Source: Planctomycetota bacterium (GTDB lineage Bacteria > Planctomycetota > UBA1135). From it: 64,000 bases of DNA. The stretch is from assembly GCA_004295085.1 (NCBI GenBank), contig SHNF01000006.1, positions 287,675-351,674 of the forward strand, in the 5' to 3' direction. Position 1 is the first letter of the stretch; each line of letters opens with the position of its first letter. The notes beneath the pieces were generated by a model. The model worked only from the letters and a program-made list of their open reading frames with translations, was not told where the DNA came from and ran no database searches. Below are positions 12,041 through 57,955 of this stretch, one piece after another. The translations under genes and the position numbers were made by a program.

Positions 12041-12976
12041 ATGAAACCTGTCCTCCTTACCCTCTCCCTCATTGCCGGGGTGGCCCTGGCCGGGGGCGCC
12101 CGCGCCCAGGACCAGGCCGATCTCGTCAAGAAGCGCGACGAGAAGCTGGCCAAGCCGTTCGTCGCGCACGGCGGCTGGATCACGGACTACGACCAGGCGC
12201 GCGAGCAGGCGCAGAAGGAGGGCAAGCCCATCTTCGTCTACTTCACGCGCAGCTACGCGTATTGACCGCCCTGCGAAGCGCTGGAGAGTGGTGCACTCTC
12301 CACCCCGGAGTTCGCGGCGTTCACCAAGAAGGTCGTGCCGTTCCTGCACGTCACCACGCGCATCGAGGGCGTCAAGCATGACGGCCTGCTGTCCGAGAAG
12401 GGCGGCCGCGGCTTCCCGACGCTCATGTTCCTGGACGCCGAGGGCAGCATCCTGGCCCAGCAGGAGGACCGCGCGGTCACGGGCTTCGAGACCACTCTGG
12501 AGAACGTCAAGACTTACCTCGACCTGAAGACGCGCCAGGCCAAGGGCGAGAAAGGCCTGGAGCTGCCGCTCTTCATGGCCGAGCTCAAGCTCGGCCTCAT
12601 GAGCTACCAGGATGCCAAGTCCAAGGCCGAGACCTTCCAGAAGCTGAGCGAGGCGGAGAAGGCCCAGATCGCGGAGGCGTTGTTCGACCTGGAAGTGCGC
12701 CAGCTCATGGACGCCTTCAATCCGCGCTCGGAGGAGGGCAAGGCCGCGGCCGCGAAGCTGGTGGAATACGCCCAGGCCGGCAAGCAGCCGTCACCGGCGC
12801 TGCGCCTCAATTACTGGGGCCTGCTCAGCTACATCGCCACGGAAGTGAACAAGGACCCCGACCTCCTGGAGAAGTGCCTCACCAACCTGCGCGCCCTTCC
12901 GGAGAGCAAGGACTTCGAGGAACAGCTCCAGCAGATGGAGCAGAAGCTCCAGGAGATGCGCAAGGGCGAACCGTAA
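12041..12976 (+). CDS. periplasmic thioredoxin-fold protein with predicted selenocysteine (TGA 12263-12265) in a U-P-P-C redox motif, plus a C-terminal helical domain
   Basis: Listed ORFs 12041..12265 and 12335..12976 are in the same frame and are interrupted only by TGA. Read-through gives KPIFVYFTRSYAY-U-PPCEALESGALSTPEFAAFTKKVVPFLHV, which is the position of the first Cys of CxxC in thioredoxin-like proteins. Signal peptide MKPVLLTLSLIAGVALAGGARAQ. A SECIS-like hairpin follows. Confidence 0.7.
12282..12302 (+). promoter_or_regulatory. candidate bacterial SECIS hairpin
   Basis: Stem GGAGAGU (12283-12289) / ACUCUCC (12295-12301) is a perfect 7 bp (plus U12282-A12302). The loop is GGUGC. The stem starts 17 nt after the in-frame UGA. 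Confidence 0.55.
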
Positions 12977-14999: not shown

Positions 15000-15160
15000 T
15001 GTGTCCGCCGCAGGCCACCCCCAGGACTGGTGCCGTGGCGGGCTGGGGACCACGCAGGGCTGGGGAGCGCCGGCGCCAGCCCGCGCGCGCGGCTTTTGAT
15101 GGCTGCGCGCCGTCCTTGGTGTTTATAGTTTGTGTGGGCTGATCTTCCCCTCTTCCCCTT

Positions 15161-15703
15161 ATGGGAGTGCTCCACCCTCAAACCGGCCCCGCCGCGCCTG
15201 ACGGGGACGCGCAGTGGCACGACCTGGTGTCGTGGGCCGAGTCGAACCTGCGCGGCCAGATCGAGCGCAGCCTTCCGGCCGGAGGGCCGATCAGCGCGAC
15301 CACCGTCATCCATTCGGCCCTGCGCCGCACGGTGGAACGGCGCGCACGCCTGCGCCATGGCATGCAGCACGCCCAGGCGTTCCTGGCCGGCATCGCCAAG
15401 CGCGTGCGCAGCGAGAAATTCCGGCGCGAGCGCCGCCTGTGCCGCAGCCCGGAGGGCGCGGTGGTGGTGGCGCTGGCGGACGGCGAAGCCGCGGGCGCGC
15501 CGGCCGAGTCGCCGTTGTGGGGCCTGGTGCTGGAGCTGCCGCCGAACCTGCGCGAGCTGCTGGAGTCCCTGTACCGGGAGGGCCTGACGTTCCGGGAGTA
15601 CGCGGCGCGCAGCGGCAAGTCGGAGAAGCAGGTGGAACGGATGCACCAGCGCGCCCTGGAGCAGCTGCGGCGCCTGTCGCGGTCGGCGGAAGAGCCGGTC
15701 TGA
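15161..15703 (+). CDS. ECF-type RNA polymerase sigma factor (kinase-associated type)
   Basis: C-terminal region-4 HTH LPPNLRELLESLYREGLTFREYAARSGKSEKQVERMHQRALEQLRRL. The N-terminal part resembles the ECF variant family usually found next to Ser/Thr kinases. It ends 13 nt before the kinase gene. Confidence 0.65.
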   Translation: MGVLHPQTGPAAPDGDAQWHDLVSWAESNLRGQIERSLPAGGPISATTVIHSALRRTVERRARLRHGMQHAQAFLAGIAKRVRSEKFRRERRLCRSPEGAVVVALADGEAAGAPAESPLWGLVLELPPNLRELLESLYREGLTFREYAARSGKSEKQVERMHQRALEQLRRLSRSAEEPV

Positions 15704-15716
15704 GCCGCGCGGAGCC

Positions 15717-18700
15717 GTGAAGCAGGCCCCCGGAGCGAGCGCGGCGACCGACCCCGGATCCGACGGCGCGAGCGGGAGCCGCGTGGCCGCGGCCTTGCGC
15801 CGGCGCCTGGAACGCGGTCCGGCGGCGGCGCCGGAGGAGCACGGCGGCGATGCCGAGCTCTCCGAGCTGTACCGCGTGCAAGGCCAGCTGCTGGGCGCAG
15901 CCGCGGCCCGAGGCGAGCCGCCGGTGGACCCGGGCGCGCCGCTGCCGCATCCGGGCGAGTGCCTGCAGGAGCGCTACGAGGTGGGCGCGTTCCTGAGCAG
16001 CGGCGGCATGGGCCTGTTGTACGAGGCCCACGACCGCGAGACTGGCGCCAGCGTGGCCTTGAAGACGCCGCGGCCCGGCTGCACGCGCGAGGAGCTGCTG
16101 CGCTTCATCCGCGAGGCCAGCCTGACGCTCCCGCAGCATCCCTGCCTGGCGCGCACGCTGGACCGCTTCACGCGCGGCCGGCGGCCGTATCACGTGCAGG
16201 AGCGGGTGCCGGGACGCTCGCTGCAGGAGATCCTGCAGGCGCGGCTGGAAGGGCGGCGCCCGGCGCACGCCGCGGAGGCGCCCTGGTTCGCGCCGCAGCC
16301 GCTGGCCCTGCACACCGCCGTGCACGCGGTGGTGCAGGTGGCGCAGGCCCTGGAGCGCCTGCACCAGGCCGGCATCGTGCATCGCGACCTCAAGCCCGGC
16401 AACATCTTGTGGCACGCCGAGGGCCGGCCGGTGCTGGTGGACTACGGGCTGGCGCTGCCGCGCGGCGGCCCGCTGCTGACCGGGCCCGGCCAGGCTGCCG
16501 GCACGGTCCCGTACATGGCGCCGGAGCAGTGGCAGGGGCGCGCGGTGGACGCCCGCGCCGACGTGTACGCGCTGGGCGCGACCTTGTGGGCGCTGATCAC
16601 CGGCACCCTGGCCACGGGCATGCCCTGGGGCGGCCGCCTGCTGCGCGGCAGCGAGCCGGTGCCGCCGGTGCTGCTCGCCATCGTGCAGAAGGCCATGGAG
16701 CCCAATCCACGCCGCCGCTTCGGCTCGGCCGCGGAGCTGGCGGCCGCGCTCGGCGCCTGGCTGGAGGACCGCGAGCCGGCAGGCTTGCACCCGTTCAACA
16801 CGCGCCTGCGGCGCTGGGCGTACCGCCACCGCCTGGCGTTCGCCTTCTGCGCCGGGGCGCTGGCCTTCGGGACCATCGTCTACCTGGGCGAGGAGTTCGT
16901 GCGCAAGAGCCGGGCGGCCGTGACCGCCCTGGAGGCCAGCATCGCGGCTTCCGCCCAGCAGATCGCGGAGTTCGAGCAGGCGGACCGGAGCGGGCCGGCC
17001 ATGAACGCGCGCAGCGACTTCCTGCAGGACTGGTTCGCGGACCACCTGCCGGCCGATCCGGAGCTGGAGAGCGAGTCCGCGCGCAAGCTCGTGTCGTTCG
17101 CGTACAACCTCAACCTGCGCATCGGGCGCCAAGAGCAGCTCCTGGTGTACACGCAGGGCGGCGCCGCGCACTGGTGGCGGGATGCAGCCGACGCGGTGCA
17201 GTCCGCCGGCGCGCTGCTCGCCAACGGGCGCGCGCAGGCCAGCGTGGAGGCGCTGCAGCGGGCGGCGCAGCGCTTTCCCAGGTCCAATCTCGCGCCCCTG
17301 TTCCCGGCGGCGGCGGCCATCCTGCAGCACTTGCAGGCGTTCGAGCGCCTCCCCGCGCCGACGTCCGCGCCGCTGCTGCGGGCATCGGAGGGCGGCGGAG
17401 TGGCCTGGGTGGACGCCGAGGGCGCGCTGGCGCACGCGCGCGTGGCCGGGGGCGGCTTCGAGCGCGAGACCGTGAGCCCGGCCGGCGCCTGGCGGCACGG
17501 GACCTTGGGCGCCTACGCGCACCTGCGCCGCGACGGCGCCGACTTCGGCAGCATTCTGTCCTGGGAGACGCGCAACGGCTCCGCGGATCCGCCGCAGGGT
17601 CTCTATTACGTGCCGGTCGGCGGGCCGCCGCAGCGCATCCTGGCCTGGGACGCCTTCGACCGCGTGCGCTCGCCGTCGGCACTGGCCGTCGGCCAGTTGG
17701 ACGGCGACGCCGAGCCGGAGCTCGTGGTGGGCACGGCCTGGGGCAGCCGCAGCCTCCTGCTCCTGGACTGCATGGACGGCCGCTGGCACCATCGCATCCT
17801 GGATCAGCGCGGCGACGACGTGGAGAGCGTGCGCATCGCCCCGCAGGCGGACGGAGCGCAGATCTGGGTCGCGGTGTCCGTGTGGAGCCTGCGGAACCAG
17901 GGCCTGCGTTGCAAGGTGCTGCAGCTGGATCCAGCACTCGAGCGCGTGGAGACGGTGGACGCGCTCCCCCTCGGCGCGCTGCACAGCTGGGAGCCCGTGC
18001 GCGGCTGGGGCGAGGTCCACTCCGTGGCCGGCTTCCACAGCACCCGCGACGCCATCTTCTTCGGCGAGACCTACGCGCGCTGCCACTCCGGGGAATGCGT
18101 GCTGCTCGGCTCCAGCCCGGCGCTGGGCTTGCGCGTGGTGCGCAGCCTGTACAGCCTGCCCGGCGTCGAGGTGGCCGTGGGCGACACCGAGGCCCGGCCC
18201 GCGGACCTGGACGGTGACGGCCGCGACGAGATCCTGCTGCACTGGGTCTGGGAGCAGCGCCGCCACGCCATGCTGGTCTTCGGCTATGCCCGCGGCTCCA
18301 AGGTGGAGTTCATCGAGCTCCCGCTGCCCCAGGCCATGGCCGAGGCGCAGATCGGCGACCTGGACGGCGACGCCCGCCCCGACCTGTACTGGCTGGAGGG
18401 CGCCGACGTGTGCCTGCTGCGGGGCTTCGGCGCGCCGTCGCTGGCGCAGCCGGCCGCTCCGCTGCCGGCGCCGCAGCACCGGCGCCTGGTGCTGGTGCGC
18501 GGCGAAGCAGCGGCCTGCGCCGGCCAGCTCGACCCGCGCGCCGCCGGCGCGCGAGCCGGCGTCTTCCAGGCGCGCCTGCGTCTGGTGCGCAGTGACTTCG
18601 ACGCCAGCGCCGTCTGGGAGCTGCGCAACGCCGCCGGCCAGGCGCTGGCGCGCCTGCGGCTGGCGACCAGCGGTGGCGGCACCACTTACCGCCACGAGGC

Positions 18701-19256
18701 CTTCCTCCAGGTCCGCGACGCCGACGGCACGCTGCGCTCCGGCGGCTCCTTCGCGGTGGCTCCCGGAATGTGGCTGGCGCTCGCCATCGAGCCGGATGCG
18801 CGCGGCCGTTGGCGCCTGGGCCTGGCGCCGGACAGCGGCGCAGCCGGTCTGCAGCCGCTGCGAGCGGCTTTCACCGCGGAAGTGGACGCGGGCTGGAGCT
18901 GGGAATGGCGCCCGGAAGGCAACCAGGGCGTCGCCGAGCGCCGTGACTTCGGCGCCGTGCTGGCCCTGGACTGGATGGGGCCGGGGCAGCCACGCCCGGC
19001 GCTGACCAGCGCGGAGGCGCTGACGGCGGAGAGCGTGTGGCGGCGCATGGAAAGCGCCCGCACGGAACGCGATTTCGGCGCGTGGAAACAGGCGCGACGC
19101 GAGCTGGAGACGGTCGCGGGGCCGCCGCGGGCGGGTGCCGCCGACACGCAGGCACGGGTCCCGCTGGCGCGCTACTACCTGGAGGAATACGGCCGGCTGG
19201 GGCTCATCCTGCACGAGGACGCGGATCCGCACTGCCCGCTGGAAGCGGAGCCTTGA
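15717..19256 (+). CDS. membrane Ser/Thr protein kinase with a large extracytoplasmic domain containing FG-GAP-like units
   Basis: Kinase motifs GGMGLLYEA..VALK, HRDLKPGNIL, DYGLA, GTVPYMAPEQ. TM helix LAFAFCAGALAFGTIVYLG. C-terminal strings VGQLDGDAEPELVVG, ADLDGDGRDEILL, IGDLDGDARPDLYW. Confidence 0.9.
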   Translation: MKQAPGASAATDPGSDGASGSRVAAALRRRLERGPAAAPEEHGGDAELSELYRVQGQLLGAAAARGEPPVDPGAPLPHPGECLQERYEVGAFLSSGGMGLLYEAHDRETGASVALKTPRPGCTREELLRFIREASLTLPQHPCLARTLDRFTRGRRPYHVQERVPGRSLQEILQARLEGRRPAHAAEAPWFAPQPLALHTAVHAVVQVAQALERLHQAGIVHRDLKPGNILWHAEGRPVLVDYGLALPRGGPLLTGPGQAAGTVPYMAPEQWQGRAVDARADVYALGATLWALITGTLATGMPWGGRLLRGSEPVPPVLLAIVQKAMEPNPRRRFGSAAELAAALGAWLEDREPAGLHPFNTRLRRWAYRHRLAFAFCAGALAFGTIVYLGEEFVRKSRAAVTALEASIAASAQQIAEFEQADRSGPAMNARSDFLQDWFADHLPADPELESESARKLVSFAYNLNLRIGRQEQLLVYTQGGAAHWWRDAADAVQSAGALLANGRAQASVEALQRAAQRFPRSNLAPLFPAAAAILQHLQAFERLPAPTSAPLLRASEGGGVAWVDAEGALAHARVAGGGFERETVSPAGAWRHGTLGAYAHLRRDGADFGSILSWETRNGSADPPQGLYYVPVGGPPQRILAWDAFDRVRSPSALAVGQLDGDAEPELVVGTAWGSRSLLLLDCMDGRWHHRILDQRGDDVESVRIAPQADGAQIWVAVSVWSLRNQGLRCKVLQLDPALERVETVDALPLGALHSWEPVRGWGEVHSVAGFHSTRDAIFFGETYARCHSGECVLLGSSPALGLRVVRSLYSLPGVEVAVGDTEARPADLDGDGRDEILLHWVWEQRRHAMLVFGYARGSKVEFIELPLPQAMAEAQIGDLDGDARPDLYWLEGADVCLLRGFGAPSLAQPAAPLPAPQHRRLVLVRGEAAACAGQLDPRAAGARAGVFQARLRLVRSDFDASAVWELRNAAGQALARLRLATSGGGTTYRHEAFLQVRDADGTLRSGGSFAVAPGMWLALAIEPDARGRWRLGLAPDSGAAGLQPLRAAFTAEVDAGWSWEWRPEGNQGVAERRDFGAVLALDWMGPGQPRPALTSAEALTAESVWRRMESARTERDFGAWKQARRELETVAGPPRAGAADTQARVPLARYYLEEYGRLGLILHEDADPHCPLEAEP

Positions 19257-28934: not shown

Positions 28935-29612
28935 CTAGCCGAAGCGGTCGGCCTGCGGGTCCCAGAACGGGCCGTGCAGCCCGATCCCGGCGAAGATGCG
29001 CCGCATCTCGTCCGGGCCTGGGCGGCGCGCCTCCGGGCTGAGGCGGTTCTCGTACCAGGCCAGCGCCAGCCGCCATAGCTGCTCCAGGCTCACCAGCGGG
29101 CGCCTGGGCCGGCCGCGGGCCGCGCACCACTGATCCACCATGTCTTCCGACCGGAAGAAGGACATCGTGCTTCAGGTGTAGACGATGTCGTCCCACCAGT
29201 GGGCCGCGGGCACGGCGAAGTGGATGACGCAGGGCACGGGCTCCGGCCCGTCCCGGCCCACGCGGATGCTCAGCGGCTCCAGGCTCTGCTCGCAGCGCGA
29301 GGACACCTGGCCCGCAGCGTGCAGGGCGGCGGGAACGCCCAGCGCATCCCAGGCGCAGTTGGCGAAGTACTCCTTGTCTCCGACCCGCACGCGGTGCTGG
29401 GTCTCGACCCCCGAGAACGGCGGCGCCATGCGGATGCTCTCGCCGTCGTCCTGGAGCACGAGCACGCGCCTGGCGTAGAGCCGCTGGTAGGCCGCGCGGA
29501 TCTCCGCCGCGCTCCTGCCGAGCGCGCGGGACATCTGCGTCACGCTCGGCGCGACCGCGTTCGCGGCGATGTGCCGGTAGATCGCCAGCCGGAGCTCGGT
29601 GTCCGCATCCAC
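28935..29612 (-). CDS. alkylmercury-lyase (MerB)-like protein with predicted selenocysteine (TGA, complement of 29172-29174) at the catalytic-Cys position
   Basis: Listed ORFs 29172..29732 and 28935..29165 are in the same frame, separated by TGA-AGC-ACG. YFANCAWDAL aligns with MerB YAWCALDTL (C96/D99). QVSSRCEQSLEPLSIRV aligns with RVSSHCAATGAPVSLTV. YT-U-STMSFFRSEDMVDQW aligns with SF-C-CHVHFFASVPTAEDW (C159). The GTG start at 29612 gives 225 aa, which is MerB-like in size; the upstream ATGs at 29711/29732 would overlap the divergent gene. Confidence 0.7.
29140..29165 (-). promoter_or_regulatory. candidate bacterial SECIS hairpin
   Basis: mRNA AUGU-CCUU-CUUCC-GGUC-GGAAG-ACAU. The lower stem is 4 bp, there is a 4-nt 5' bulge, the upper stem is 5 bp, and the apical loop is GGUC. 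It begins 6 nt after the in-frame UGA, with the loop about 19 nt downstream. Confidence 0.55.
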
Positions 29613-29616
29613 GCCC

Positions 29617-29637
29617 GGATTGTAGGCGGATTGTAGG
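29617..29637. repeat. tandem direct repeat GGATTGTAGG-C-GGATTGTAGG (11-nt period) in the divergent spacer; reads as two TACAAT boxes on the minus strand
   Basis: Read directly. It is unusually AT-rich for this DNA. It lies 5 nt upstream of the proposed GTG (29612) of the MerB-like gene and 43 nt upstream of the ATG (29680) of the methyltransferase gene. Confidence 0.8.
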
Positions 29638-29679
29638 AGTCGGAGGCAACCTGGGCGCGCCGGCGGCGGCCCATGGCCT

Positions 29680-30528
29680 ATGCTGGCACGCGTGGCGGCC
29701 GCGATCACCATCCTGGATGGCCCGGTCGGCACGGAGCTGGCCGCGCGCGGCGTGCCGACGCCGCTGCCGCAGTGGAGCGCGTGGGCGCTGGCGCATCGGC
29801 CGGAAGCGGTGGCGGCGATCCACCGCGACTACGCCGCCGCCGGGGCCACCGTGCACACCGCCAACACATTTCGCACGCAGCGTCGCATCTTTCCGGAAGA
29901 CTGGGAGCGCCTGGCGCGCCTGGCGGTGGCGATCGCGCGCGCATCGGTCCCGCCGCCGCAGCGCGTGGCCGGCAGCATGGCGCCGCTGGAGGACTGCTAC
30001 TCGCCCTGGCTCAGCCCGCCCGACCCCCGGCCCGCGCACCGCGCGCTGGCGCGCGTGCTGGCCGACTGCGGCGTCGATCTGCTGCTGTGCGAGACCTTTC
30101 CGCACGTGGGCGAAGCCCTGATCGCGCTCGAGGAAGCGGTGGCGGCCGGCGTCCCGTCCTGGGTCAGCTTCACCGCCGGTCCCAATGCCGACCTCCTGAC
30201 GCCGGACGAGGTGCACGCAGCGGCGCGGTCGGCCCGGGAGCGCGGCGCGGCTGCGGTGCTGGTGAACTGCGTGCCCGCCGCGCGCACCCTGGAGTTCGTG
30301 CAGGCGCTGGCCGGCGCCGGCCTGCCGTTCGGCGCCTACGCCAACGCCGGCGCGGCCGACGAGCGGATCGGCTGGAAGCCCGAGCCGCTGGCCGCCGAGC
30401 GCTACGCGCGCCTGGCGGCGCAGTGGGTGGCCGCCGGAGCCAGCATCGTCGGCGGCTGCTGCGGCACCGGGCCGGAGCACGTCGCCGCGCTCAGAAGCAG
30501 TGCGTCATGCCGTTGCTCAGCGCGGTGA
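29680..30528 (+). CDS. homocysteine S-methyltransferase family protein
   Basis: ILDGPVGTEL, HRDYAAAGATVHTANTF, LLLCETFP, VLVNC and the C-terminal zinc-site string IVGGCCGTGPEHV. Confidence 0.85.
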   Translation: MLARVAAAITILDGPVGTELAARGVPTPLPQWSAWALAHRPEAVAAIHRDYAAAGATVHTANTFRTQRRIFPEDWERLARLAVAIARASVPPPQRVAGSMAPLEDCYSPWLSPPDPRPAHRALARVLADCGVDLLLCETFPHVGEALIALEEAVAAGVPSWVSFTAGPNADLLTPDEVHAAARSARERGAAAVLVNCVPAARTLEFVQALAGAGLPFGAYANAGAADERIGWKPEPLAAERYARLAAQWVAAGASIVGGCCGTGPEHVAALRSSASCRCSAR

Positions 30529-54760: not shown

Positions 54761-55408
54761 ATGACGGGGCTGCCGTCCGCGGACCGGAGCCACCCCACGC
54801 GGGAAGTCACCCTTTCCATCGTGGGGCGCGCGCAGCAGGGGGACGCGCAGGCCGCGGATGACCTGGTGCGGCGCATGACCGGGCGCGTCTACGGCCTGAT
54901 CCTGTTGTACATGGGGCCGCAGGTGCACCGGCGCTGCGAGCCGGAGGACGTGCTCCAGGAGGTCTGGATCGAGGCGCTGGGCCACCTGGACAGCTTCGAC
55001 TGCGCCCGCGGCAGCTCCTTCGGGGCCTGGATCGGCACCATCGTGCGGCGCAAGCTGGGCCGCATCGCCGACGGCAAGCCGCTGCCCGAAGTCGCGGCGG
55101 GGCTGGCCGGCTCGGCGTCCACGCGCGCCAGCGTGTCGCAGATCCTGCACGGGCGCGACGCGACCACCCCGCCGCAGGCGGCGTCGCAGCGCGAGATGGT
55201 GCAGCGCCTGGTGGCCGCCGTGGCGGCGCTGCCGGGCGAGCAGCGCGAAGCCGCCGCCGCCTACTGGCTGGAGGAGTGCAGCGCCCAGGAGGTGGCGGAT
55301 CGCCTGGGGAAGTCGCGCGCCGCGGTGTACATGCTGCTCATGCGCGTGAGCCGCCTGCTGGCCGCCGAGCTGGAGGACGCCGGACTCAGCGATCCGGCGC
55401 GCTGGTGA
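54761..55408 (+). CDS. ECF-type RNA polymerase sigma factor
   Basis: ATG at 54761 within listed ORF 53306..55408. Region 2 PEDVLQEVWIEALGHLDSFD..SFGAWIGTIVRRKL. Region 4 LPGEQREAAAAYWLEECSAQEVADRLGKSRAAVYMLLMRVSRLL. Confidence 0.85.
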   Translation: MTGLPSADRSHPTREVTLSIVGRAQQGDAQAADDLVRRMTGRVYGLILLYMGPQVHRRCEPEDVLQEVWIEALGHLDSFDCARGSSFGAWIGTIVRRKLGRIADGKPLPEVAAGLAGSASTRASVSQILHGRDATTPPQAASQREMVQRLVAAVAALPGEQREAAAAYWLEECSAQEVADRLGKSRAAVYMLLMRVSRLLAAELEDAGLSDPARW

Positions 55409-55411
55409 GGC

Positions 55412-57955
55412 GTGGATCCCGAGCCCGCGGAGGGGGCCGGCGCGCTGCTGGAGCAGATCCTGGAGGGCGGCATCGCCGACGTGGACGCGTTCCTGGCCGC
55501 CCAGCCGGCGGGGCTGGCGGCGCAGGTGCGCCAGGCGCTGCTCGACTTCCGGCGCCTGGACGGCGGCTTCGGCCCCGGCCTGCGCGGCCCGAGCGCCGCC
55601 GGCGGGGCGGTGCTCGGCGATTTCCGGCTGCTGCGCCAGCTCGGCCGGGGCGGCATGGGCGAGGTGTGGGAGGCCGAGCAGCTGTCGCTGCGCCGGCGCG
55701 TGGCCCTCAAGCTCCTGCGCCCGGAGCAGGTGGCGCTGCCGCAGCGCCTGGCGCGTTTCCGGCGCGAGGCCGAGGCCGGGGCGCGCCTGCGCCATCCGCA
55801 CATCGTGGCCGTGTACGCGGTTGGGGAGCAGGAGGGCGTGCACTACATCGCCGAGGAACTGGTGCCGGGCGGGCGCACGCTCGCCGACGAGCTGGCGGAG
55901 CAGCGCCGCCTGGCGCACGTGTCCGGCGACCACTACGAGCGGCTCGCGCGCCGCCTGCTCGGCATCGCCGAGGCCCTGGTCTACGCGCACGCGCACGGCG
56001 TGCTGCACCGCGACGTCAAGCCTTCCAACATCCTGATGGAGGAGGACGGCCGCCTCAAGATCGGAGATTTCGGCCTGGCGCGCCTGCTGGACGATCCGTC
56101 CCTGTCGCGCACCGGCGAGGTCTCGGGCACGCCGTTCTACATGTCCCCGGAACAGACGCGCGGGCGCCCTCAGGACGTCGGCCCCGGCAGCGACGTGTTC
56201 TCGCTGGGCGCGACCCTGTACGAGGCGCTCACGCTGGCGCGCCCCTTCGACGGCGACACCAGCCACGAGATCCTGGAGAAAATCCGCACGCTCGATCCGC
56301 CGGATCCGCGCCGCTTGCGCGCGCGCGTGCCCGCCGACCTGGCGGTGATCTGCCTGCACGCGCTGGAGAAGGACCCGCGGCGTCGCTACCCCGGCATGGC
56401 GGACCTGGCGGCGGACCTGCAGCGCTTCCTGGCGCACCAGCCGATCCGGGCGCGCCCCCCCGGACCGGTCAGCCGCGCAGCGCGCTGGATGCGGCGGCAC
56501 CCGGTGGTCGCGGTCGGCGGCTCCATCGCCGCGGCCGCGTTCGTGCTGGTGACGGCGCTCCTGCTCGAGAACCGGTCCGCGCGCCGCGCCGCCGAGCAGG
56601 CGGCGGCCGACGCCAGCGTCGAGGCCGAGACCGCGGAGAAGGTCGCCTCCGTGCTGGAGGACCTGTTCCTCAACGCCGCGCCGGGCAAGGTGCCGCAGCA
56701 GGTGAGCGCCGCCGAGCTGCTGGCGCGCGGCGTCGGCGACGTGGAGAAGCTGGCGGCGGAGCCGCGGGTGTACGCGCGCCTGCTGAGCACGCTCAGCCAC
56801 GTGTACTGGGGCATGGAGGCGCTGGAACCGGCGGAGGCGCTGGCGCTGAAGGCGGAGGCGGCCACGCGCTCGGCCCCCGGACCCGGCAGTCCGGAGCACG
56901 GCCAGGCTCTGCTCGACCTCGCGCACGTGCGCCACGCGCAGGACCGCCTGGAGGAAGCCGAAGCCCTGGGGCGCGAGGCGCGCGGCATCCTGCTGCGCAG
57001 CGTCGGCGCCGCCGACCGGCGCAGCGCCCGCGCCGCCAACTTCCTGGGCCAGGTGTTGATCAGCCTGGGACGCGTGCAGGAAGCCGAACAGGTGCTGCGC
57101 GCGCAGGTGGACCTGCCGGCGCGGCAGCTGCCGCCAGCGTGGATCGAGTGGTGCGTGGCGCGCAGCGCGCTCGGCAGCGTCTACCTGGACGCCGGGCGCC
57201 TGCTCGAGGCCGAGCCGCTGCTGCGCGAAGCGCTGGCGGTGGCCGCGGAGCGCCGCGGCCCCGAGGACGACTTCGTCATGGAGCTGCGCCGCGAGCTGGC
57301 CATGCTGGAGCTGCGCCAGGGGCTCGCCGAGCAGGCCGTGCCCGCCCTGGAGGCGGTGCTGGCCTGGAAGGAGCGCCTGTACGGGCGCGACGCGCTCACG
57401 ACCCTGGCCCTGGCCGCCGACCTGGCCGCCGGCTACAGCGCGCTGGGGCGCGCGGACGAGGCCGCCGCCGCCTACCGGCGCGCACTGGACGACCACCTGC
57501 GCGTGCTCGGCCGCGAGCACCGCGAGAGCCTGCGCCTGACCATCAATTACGTCAGCTTCTGCCTCAGCCACGACGACCTGGACAGCGCGCGGGAGCTGCT
57601 GGCGGATCTGCCGGAGCGGGTGGACGCAGCGTATCCGGACGACGTCTCCACGATCTGGCACGTGCGCTTCCAGGTGGCCTACGTGCTCCTGCTCGACCAG
57701 CCCGACGAGGGCCTGCGCCGGTTCGAGGAGCTCCTGCCGCAGATGCGCGCGAAGCTGGGCGCCCACCACGAGATCGTGGTGCGCGCCGCCTGCCTGCTGG
57801 CCACCGAGTACGCGGACCGCGGCCGCGGCGGCGCGGCCGAGGCGCTGCTGGTGGAGACCCTGGAGGCGGCGCGCGCGCAGCGCGGGAAGGACGACCGGCT
57901 CACGCGCTCGGTCGCCGAGATCCTGGCGGAGCTGCGCGGCGCGGCGGTCGAGTAG
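55412..57955 (+). CDS. membrane Ser/Thr protein kinase with a C-terminal TPR-repeat domain
   Basis: GRGGMGEVWEA..VALK, HRDVKPSNIL, GDFGLAR, GTPFYMSPEQ. TM VAVGGSIAAAAFVLVTALLL. TPR-like repeats to the end. It starts 3 nt after the sigma gene stop. Confidence 0.9.
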   Translation: MDPEPAEGAGALLEQILEGGIADVDAFLAAQPAGLAAQVRQALLDFRRLDGGFGPGLRGPSAAGGAVLGDFRLLRQLGRGGMGEVWEAEQLSLRRRVALKLLRPEQVALPQRLARFRREAEAGARLRHPHIVAVYAVGEQEGVHYIAEELVPGGRTLADELAEQRRLAHVSGDHYERLARRLLGIAEALVYAHAHGVLHRDVKPSNILMEEDGRLKIGDFGLARLLDDPSLSRTGEVSGTPFYMSPEQTRGRPQDVGPGSDVFSLGATLYEALTLARPFDGDTSHEILEKIRTLDPPDPRRLRARVPADLAVICLHALEKDPRRRYPGMADLAADLQRFLAHQPIRARPPGPVSRAARWMRRHPVVAVGGSIAAAAFVLVTALLLENRSARRAAEQAAADASVEAETAEKVASVLEDLFLNAAPGKVPQQVSAAELLARGVGDVEKLAAEPRVYARLLSTLSHVYWGMEALEPAEALALKAEAATRSAPGPGSPEHGQALLDLAHVRHAQDRLEEAEALGREARGILLRSVGAADRRSARAANFLGQVLISLGRVQEAEQVLRAQVDLPARQLPPAWIEWCVARSALGSVYLDAGRLLEAEPLLREALAVAAERRGPEDDFVMELRRELAMLELRQGLAEQAVPALEAVLAWKERLYGRDALTTLALAADLAAGYSALGRADEAAAAYRRALDDHLRVLGREHRESLRLTINYVSFCLSHDDLDSARELLADLPERVDAAYPDDVSTIWHVRFQVAYVLLLDQPDEGLRRFEELLPQMRAKLGAHHEIVVRAACLLATEYADRGRGGAAEALLVETLEAARAQRGKDDRLTRSVAEILAELRGAAVE

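Follow-up and report, generated by a model that had tools for sequence, protein, structure and literature searches.

An in-frame TGA very likely read as selenocysteine in a thioredoxin-like protein gene of Planctomycetota

Does the TGA at positions 12263-12265 of a Planctomycetota contig end a gene, or is it read as selenocysteine (Sec) within one? We addressed this question in a 64-kb stretch of DNA with a GC content of 71.6% (contig SHNF01000006.1 of assembly GCA_004295085.1), called the window below. Two open reading frames (ORFs), 12041..12265 and 12335..12976, lie there on the forward strand in one frame and are parted only by this codon, just as the original prediction, made from the sequence alone, had described. 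That prediction placed the TGA at the first Cys of a C-x-x-C motif in a periplasmic protein of thioredoxin fold and took it for a Sec codon. The comparative data strongly support this assignment, in that the TGA is conserved, full-length homologues carry Cys at the same place, and the hairpin that follows the codon covaries. We consider it very likely that the TGA at 12263 encodes the active-site Sec of an exported redox protein of thioredoxin-like type and that the locus is a genuine selenoprotein gene.

A single reading frame across the TGA

The complete gene spans 12041..12976 on the forward strand and comprises 311 codons followed by TAA. Between the ATG at 12041 and the TAA at 12974-12976, the TGA at 12263-12265 is the only stop. 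Translation across it gives ...IFVYFTRSYAY-U-PPCEALESGALS..., the 311-residue read-through product reads ...GKPIFVYFTRSYAY-U-PPCEALESGALSTPEF..., and the peptide spanning the Sec codon is SYAY-U-PPCEALESGALSTPEFAAFTK. The putative Sec would be residue 75, the first position of a U-P-P-C redox motif (TGA CCG CCC TGC, 12263..12274). The G+C content of third codon positions is 0.97 upstream of the TGA and 0.92 downstream. In public databases the locus is represented by an entry of 213 aa (P0001, EYC70_06245, "hypothetical protein"), 100% identical, which is a truncated call from the GTG at 12335.

Among 5.8 billion proteins searched, 78 relatives were retrieved; all of the organism names given belong to Planctomycetota. 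Eight of the 78, with lengths of 310 to 353 aa, align over the whole N-terminal domain and contain FTRSYaxCxxC, with the first Cys exactly at the TGA column, where the original prediction had expected it. Most of the others are 190 to 260 aa long and start just 3' of that column (PCEALESG..., MLESG..., MEGG...), because gene callers stop at the TGA; the starts chosen for family members differ across species and are not conserved. When 1.84 billion cluster representatives were searched with a profile, 1188 members were found at E <= 1e-3, 572 of them at E <= 1e-30, and the family numbers no fewer than about 570 clusters at 50% identity. Among the best 150 representatives, the match begins at residue 1 to 4 of the protein in 122 and 28 are full length, a ratio of truncated to full-length forms of about 4:1. 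The family's redox motif reads UPPC or UGPC. Two full-length representatives, P0185 and P0213, lack it (…TRSDAEAPAC… and …TRSYAPAKPA…, respectively), a loss that suggests non-catalytic derivatives in the family, as judged from the motif.

We compared the genes themselves by scanning one genome per GTDB species, which gave 46 loci, all in Planctomycetota records except two that bear no label beyond uncultured bacterium; counting the window and the tandem paralogues, 51 gene copies were available. At the column of the first Cys of CxxC, TGA is present in 50 of the 51 copies and TGG in one, with no TAA or TAG; since the patterns used in the scan ([PT]FLHVTT[RHK]I and EKG[GF][RG]GFP[TS]) enriched the Sec-type subfamily, this 50:1 is not a family-wide ratio of Sec to Cys. 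The single TGG apart, the column thus holds Cys or TGA, and the relatives neither terminate there nor hold an unrelated residue, in line with what the Sec assignment had anticipated of homologues. Upstream of the TGA, all copies encode a signal peptide and the block GGWxTDYDEAR...GKxIFxYFTRSYaP, and each family sequence contains exactly one stop in frame 0. On either side of the TGA, and also over the 23 codons that precede the annotated GTG start, the entropy of the columns shows codon periodicity (position 3 > 1 > 2) in one and the same frame. Translation continues through the TGA. A global reassignment of the codon was ruled out, because among the 38 window ORFs whose base composition is of the coding type, more than 20 end at a TGA in the usual way.

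A hairpin maintained as RNA downstream of the TGA

The original prediction had also pointed to a perfect 7-bp stem, GGAGAGU/ACUCUCC with the loop GGUGC, 17 nucleotides (nt) 3' of the UGA. It is present in the sequence, with its arms at 12283-12289 (GGAGAGT) and 12295-12301 (ACTCTCC), its loop GGTGC at 12290-12294 and its onset 17 nt past the TGA. The stem can be extended by the pair U12282-A12302 and by a loop-closing G-C pair, and the resulting hairpin, UGGAGAGU-GGUGC-ACUCUCCA (12282..12302, forward strand), lies over the codons L-E-S-G-A-L-S and is of the selenocysteine insertion sequence (SECIS) type. Published criteria for bacterial SECIS elements (bSECIS) are a loop of 3-9 nt, a stem of 4-16 bp, a G in the first two loop positions, a UGA-loop distance of 16-37 nt and a folding energy <= -7.5 kcal/mol (PMC13188914, Fig. 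2 legend). Applied with our own bulge-free script, these limits enclose the window hairpin, at -12.8 kcal/mol with 9 bp, a UGA-loop distance of 24-25 nt and the loop G-GUG-C. They also enclose the hairpins of 46 of 50 relatives; the other four carry a mismatch in the stem, which the bulge-free script does not tolerate.

Taken alone, the hairpin of the window is unremarkable. Its RNAfold z score is -2.26, and 5 of 200 shuffled sequences fold equally well. The window contains 927 TGA trinucleotides; a hairpin within the limits of the bacterial SECIS criteria comes after 18% of them, and one that reaches a stability of about -13 kcal/mol after 3%. The layout had been called the standard signature of bacterial Sec decoding; it does fall within the published limits, but in a single sequence of 72% GC and against a background of 18% it is far weaker as evidence than that phrase implied. 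The significance of the hairpin must therefore come from comparison across sequences.

Over 51 nt, the 50 TGA copies can be aligned gap-free, and the register of the hairpin is fixed. Over the 50 sequences, 91.3% of the cells in helix columns 20-27/33-40 are paired, compared with 38-66% when the partner was slid, and the covariation score was reached by none of 500 shuffles. Pair 27-33 is formed by C-G in 36 sequences and by U-A in 9; one-sided changes are absent, and both columns are third-codon positions (AGC...xCG versus AGU...xCA). Double changes from G-C to A-U occur at pair 26-34 in five sequences and at pair 24-36 in three. Third-position entropy is 0.14-0.99 within the hairpin versus 1.4-2.0 alongside it. 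The loop codon is NGU in 45 of the 50 copies (GGU in 33, CGU in 8 and AGU in 4), so that the loop G-U is kept though the residue varies between Gly, Arg and Ser. In the window, the top of the hairpin is AGT-GGT-GCA; the genes of the window use AGT for 2.5% of Ser codons, GGT for 4% of Gly codons and T in the third position of 4.7% of codons overall.

The Cys forms offer a control. Five Cys-form genes that encode a similar peptide (LEKGPLS, LENGLLS etc.) fold to between -1.4 and -10.2 kcal/mol in the same register, versus a mean of -12.8 (standard deviation 2.5) for the Sec forms, and the hairpin is absent or weaker in these five genes. As the paired changes in the aligned copies show, the hairpin is maintained by selection as RNA.

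The single copy with TGG at the Sec column (L035, positions 41-43; JACNIZ010000090.1, from the Planctomycetota metagenome-assembled genome [MAG] NIOZ-UU23) would have Trp at this place, and the contig end cuts the gene. It retains a perfect hairpin, GGAAAGU-GGUUC-ACUUUCC. A recent mutation or a sequencing error could explain the TGG, or the copy could be inactive.

Sec decoding and its alternatives

Several observations weigh against the Sec assignment or temper it. ARAGORN detected no tRNA, and so no tRNA-Sec, in the window, and Pfam scans of its 38 ORFs with coding-type base composition revealed no selA, selB or selD; at the 46 related loci, ARAGORN found only Met, Pro and Val tRNAs and no tRNA-Sec. 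In favour of the assignment, complete selA/selB/selD sets have been described in several Planctomycetes (PMC4807772). The hairpin coincides with the codons of a conserved peptide, LESGxLS, and some of its conservation is therefore owed to the protein, and SECIS-like hairpins are frequent after TGA in the window, as described above. The Cys-form controls are few (n = 5), and one of them folds to -10.2 kcal/mol, by a different structure. A search of the whole window against Rfam at gathering thresholds gave no match, and for 12200-12400 at E <= 10 the only match was a chance miRNA match on the opposite strand, Rfam being without a fitting bacterial SECIS model. The SECIS check that had been proposed for this hairpin was thus borne out by the published limits and by compensatory changes, and not by any Rfam model. 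All-against-all BLAST of the flanking ORFs of related loci brought up neither a redox partner nor any other conserved neighbour; what recurs is limited to tandem paralogues and an antisense shadow ORF. The enrichment of Sec-type copies by the scan patterns has to be kept in mind as well, and we infer both the function and the export of the product.

Could the UGA be read without a SECIS? In SECIS-independent read-through, a near-cognate tRNA for Trp, Cys or Arg would decode the UGA and the hairpin would merely slow termination. Structures 3' of a stop codon can in general promote read-through, and such a mechanism would agree with the copy that has TGG at the column yet keeps its hairpin, as well as with a 64-kb window in which Sec machinery is seen nowhere. 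We nevertheless regard it as highly improbable, as the UGA column is that of the catalytic first Cys of CxxC in the Cys homologues, and Trp or Arg would kill the redox site. Conservation of the loop G-U in 45 of 50 copies while the residue shifts between Gly, Ser and Arg fits recognition by SelB better than a generic roadblock, and the loop and its distance from the UGA fit the bSECIS model. Moreover, an unrelated second gene of the window, described below, displays the same layout of a UGA and a GGU-loop hairpin.

Even less probable, in our judgment, is that the TGA is a true stop, which would leave either a secreted peptide of 74 aa and a separate protein of 213 aa starting at the GTG at 12335, or a pseudogene. 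The public gene calls for most family members are indeed such truncated ORFs, but their starts are not conserved and differ between species, and the 23 codons between the TGA and the GTG at 12335 are under in-frame, codon-periodic purifying selection. In the structural model of a Cys homologue presented below, the split would sever the thioredoxin fold between beta-1 and alpha-1, and the larger part would be without a signal peptide; the original prediction had argued in the same way, from a stub that ends inside the fold. A pseudogene would not retain one particular stop codon, and no other, in 50 copies. A sequencing or assembly error hiding a TGC or TGT has almost nothing to recommend it. 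The window matches the record of a MAG, but the same TGA is found in 50 copies from independent assemblies of many projects, and the SECIS-type hairpin goes with the TGA forms and not with the Cys forms.

Sec decoding of the TGA is thus the reading that we retain. Another gene of the window bears on it. This gene is MerB-like (alkylmercury lyase, PF03243) and lies on the reverse strand at 28935-29711, from an ATG at ~29711 to a TAG at 28937-28935. An in-frame TGA at 29174-29172 falls within the MerB domain (...WWDDIVYT-U-STMSFFRSEDMVDQWC...), and a hairpin, UCUUCC-GGUC-GGAAGA, is found at 29158-29143 on the same strand, too weak for the threshold of -7.5 kcal/mol. In metagenomic relatives, TGA is present at the aligned column in 77 of 80, all with the conserved GGUC-loop hairpin CUCUUCC-GGUC-GGAAGAG. 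The protein scores 67.5 bits against a MerB cut-off of 193 and 50 bits against a cut-off of 140 for the selenoprotein SaoL, and its motif is T-U-x-T compared with CU in SaoL. As both scores are below the cut-offs, the protein may represent a MerB-like subfamily of selenoproteins in its own right. This further gene with a conserved TGA, at 29174, supports Sec decoding indirectly, and the presence of two conserved UGA genes within 64 kb hints at an unusually large selenoproteome in this lineage.

A third candidate, the in-frame TGA at 55406 on the forward strand, was rejected, as it is merely the stop of a gene for an extracytoplasmic function (ECF) sigma factor, and a Ser/Thr kinase gene comes next in that frame. 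A relaxed scan of the window revealed no further in-frame TGA candidates. The succession of an ECF-type sigma-70 gene and a large Ser/Thr protein kinase gene, with tetratricopeptide (TPR) or FG-GAP repeats, is found twice on the forward strand, at 54800-55408 / 55409-57955 and at 15143-15703 / 15588-19256.

Genomes that carry the thioredoxin-like family often have two or three paralogues. Tandem copies are found in L001 (1955, 3172), L013 (3223, 4202), L021 (941, 1962) and L037 (2057, 3166), and two separate loci occur in one MAG in the cases of J029 (L002, L020) and MO_035.B4 (L010, L015). Each tandem or dispersed paralogue has its own TGA and its own hairpin. Two Cys-form loci, L047 and L048 (encoding P0003 and P0035), share their neighbours, namely, genes for a Bax1-I family membrane protein, ArgR and N-acetyl-gamma-glutamyl-phosphate reductase; no such shared surroundings were seen among the Sec-form loci.

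Fold, likely function and known relatives of the protein

The read-through product is a 311-residue precursor that begins with a predicted signal peptide of the Sec secretion type (12041..12106, with cleavage at MKPVLLTLSLIAGVALAGGARA/QD), recognized by eye from a hydrophobic core followed by A-x-A, and this signal peptide would direct its export to the periplasm. With Cys in place of the stop, residues 46-133 (12176..12439) match Pfam Thioredoxin_7 (PF13899) with an E value of 9.8e-12 and 45.3 bits versus a cut-off of 27, over profile positions 2-83 of 83. The thioredoxin-fold periplasmic protein of the original prediction is thus upheld, its export by a signal peptide that is itself predicted. 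For PF13098, the window protein reaches 24.1 bits versus a cut-off of 27, and several Cys homologues carry precomputed PF13098 matches. No Pfam family matched the C-terminal domain at E <= 0.1, and no PDZ domain was found by Pfam in the product. Among PDB sequences, DsbH (2ju5, E = 5.6e-5) matches best, and the first Cys of its CMWC motif aligns to the TGA; DsbD-gamma comes next.

For the structure, we used the AlphaFold2 model of the Cys homologue P0003, which is 37% identical to the window protein (predicted local distance difference test score, 92.8). The model displays a thioredoxin fold in which beta-1 is IFAYFTR, the TGA-aligned Cys78 of P0003 is positioned directly before helix alpha-1, and the second Cys is in the first turn of alpha-1. 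A conserved Pro precedes beta-3, and P126 is invariant in the homologue alignment (A1). Residues 149-310 of the model form eight helices, and we delineate the corresponding part of the window protein as an all-helical C-terminal domain of about 165 aa without a Pfam family (approximately residues 147-311, 12479..12973). With this model, Foldseek retrieved DsbH, with a root mean square deviation (rmsd) of 2.7 A over 104 columns, and also DsbD-gamma, AGR2/AGR3 and ERp19. Its top match for the whole chain was YbbN/CnoX (3qdn, E = 9e-5), a loose one with a TM-score of 0.23-0.25 and an rmsd of 22 A.

A mechanism may be proposed on these grounds. SelB-dependent decoding would insert Sec at the UGA in place of termination, and the exported protein would expose Sec as a nucleophile at the N terminus of alpha-1, with Cys78 of its own U-P-P-C motif as the resolving partner. 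Given such a pair, the motif and the model suggest that the product is most likely a thiol-disulfide (selenenylsulfide) oxidoreductase. By analogy with DsbH or DsbD-gamma, it probably works as a reductase. The C-terminal helical domain plausibly binds substrates or partners.

For this family, hundreds of database entries are currently "hypothetical proteins" cut short at the N terminus, with neither the signal peptide nor the catalytic domain, and recognition of the Sec codon restores a full thioredoxin-fold enzyme in the annotation. The family would add to the approximately 119 prokaryotic selenoprotein families, with a Sec form that appears dominant, and it points to periplasmic selenium-dependent redox chemistry in Planctomycetota, a phylum with sparse selenoproteome data. 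A selenium-dependent redox pathway of the periplasm, hidden completely by current annotation, could even have this family at its core. Our understanding of Sec decoding is unchanged; UxxC in a thioredoxin fold followed by a 3' GGU-loop hairpin is a textbook case, and the surprise to specialists should therefore be modest.

How does the family compare with known systems? A 2026 review catalogues 119 prokaryotic selenoprotein families, many of which are thioredoxin-fold proteins with UxxC (PMC13188914, Table 1). The window protein resembles those bacterial selenoproteins in that Sec replaces the first Cys of CxxC, Cys homologues exist, and the coding sequence contains a bacterial SECIS hairpin shortly 3' of the UGA. 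It shares UxxC with the 'thiol:disulfide interchange' selenoprotein of Geobacter (WP_011366075.1), whose defining Pfam domain is another one, PF13098; the present family, perhaps a separate one, belongs to Thioredoxin_7 (PF13899), is below threshold for PF13098, and has the additional helical C-terminal domain of about 165 aa. The Trx7/PDZ selenoprotein (NF041199) likewise has a Thioredoxin_7-type domain, but its motif is CxxU, with Sec second, and it contains a PDZ domain; the window protein scores 25.5 bits against its cut-off of 300, over 36 residues. Other thioredoxin-like selenoprotein models of NCBIfam were below cut-off (TsoB NF045694, 29.6 bits versus 805; VPGUxxT NF041383, 22.1 versus 275) or without a match at E <= 1 (SaoT NF040730, HUIPC NF047660 and GOS_C NF045500).

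The best sequence and structure matches of the catalytic domain are DsbH, the periplasmic disulfide reductase of Chlamydia (2ju5, NF043050), and DsbD-gamma. Both are periplasmic reductases with CxxC at the same place, but they have Cys rather than Sec and no helical C-terminal domain. With 43.4 bits against the NF043050 cut-off of 190, the window protein is far too distant to be a DsbH orthologue. The 'chaperedoxin' YbbN/CnoX (3qdn) is similar in architecture only, in that a helical TPR-like domain comes after a thioredoxin domain; CnoX is a protein of the cytoplasm and is not known to have a CxxC. The family thus appears to be uncatalogued and Sec-dominant, and by these sequence comparisons it was recovered only from Planctomycetota and the two uncultured-bacteria records. 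That it is an undescribed selenoprotein family in which Sec rather than Cys predominates, found here only in Planctomycetota, we propose tentatively and with considerable doubt. It would depart from the published rule that Cys forms dominate, since the truncated and presumably Sec-containing forms outnumber the full-length ones by about 4:1 among the best 150 representatives.

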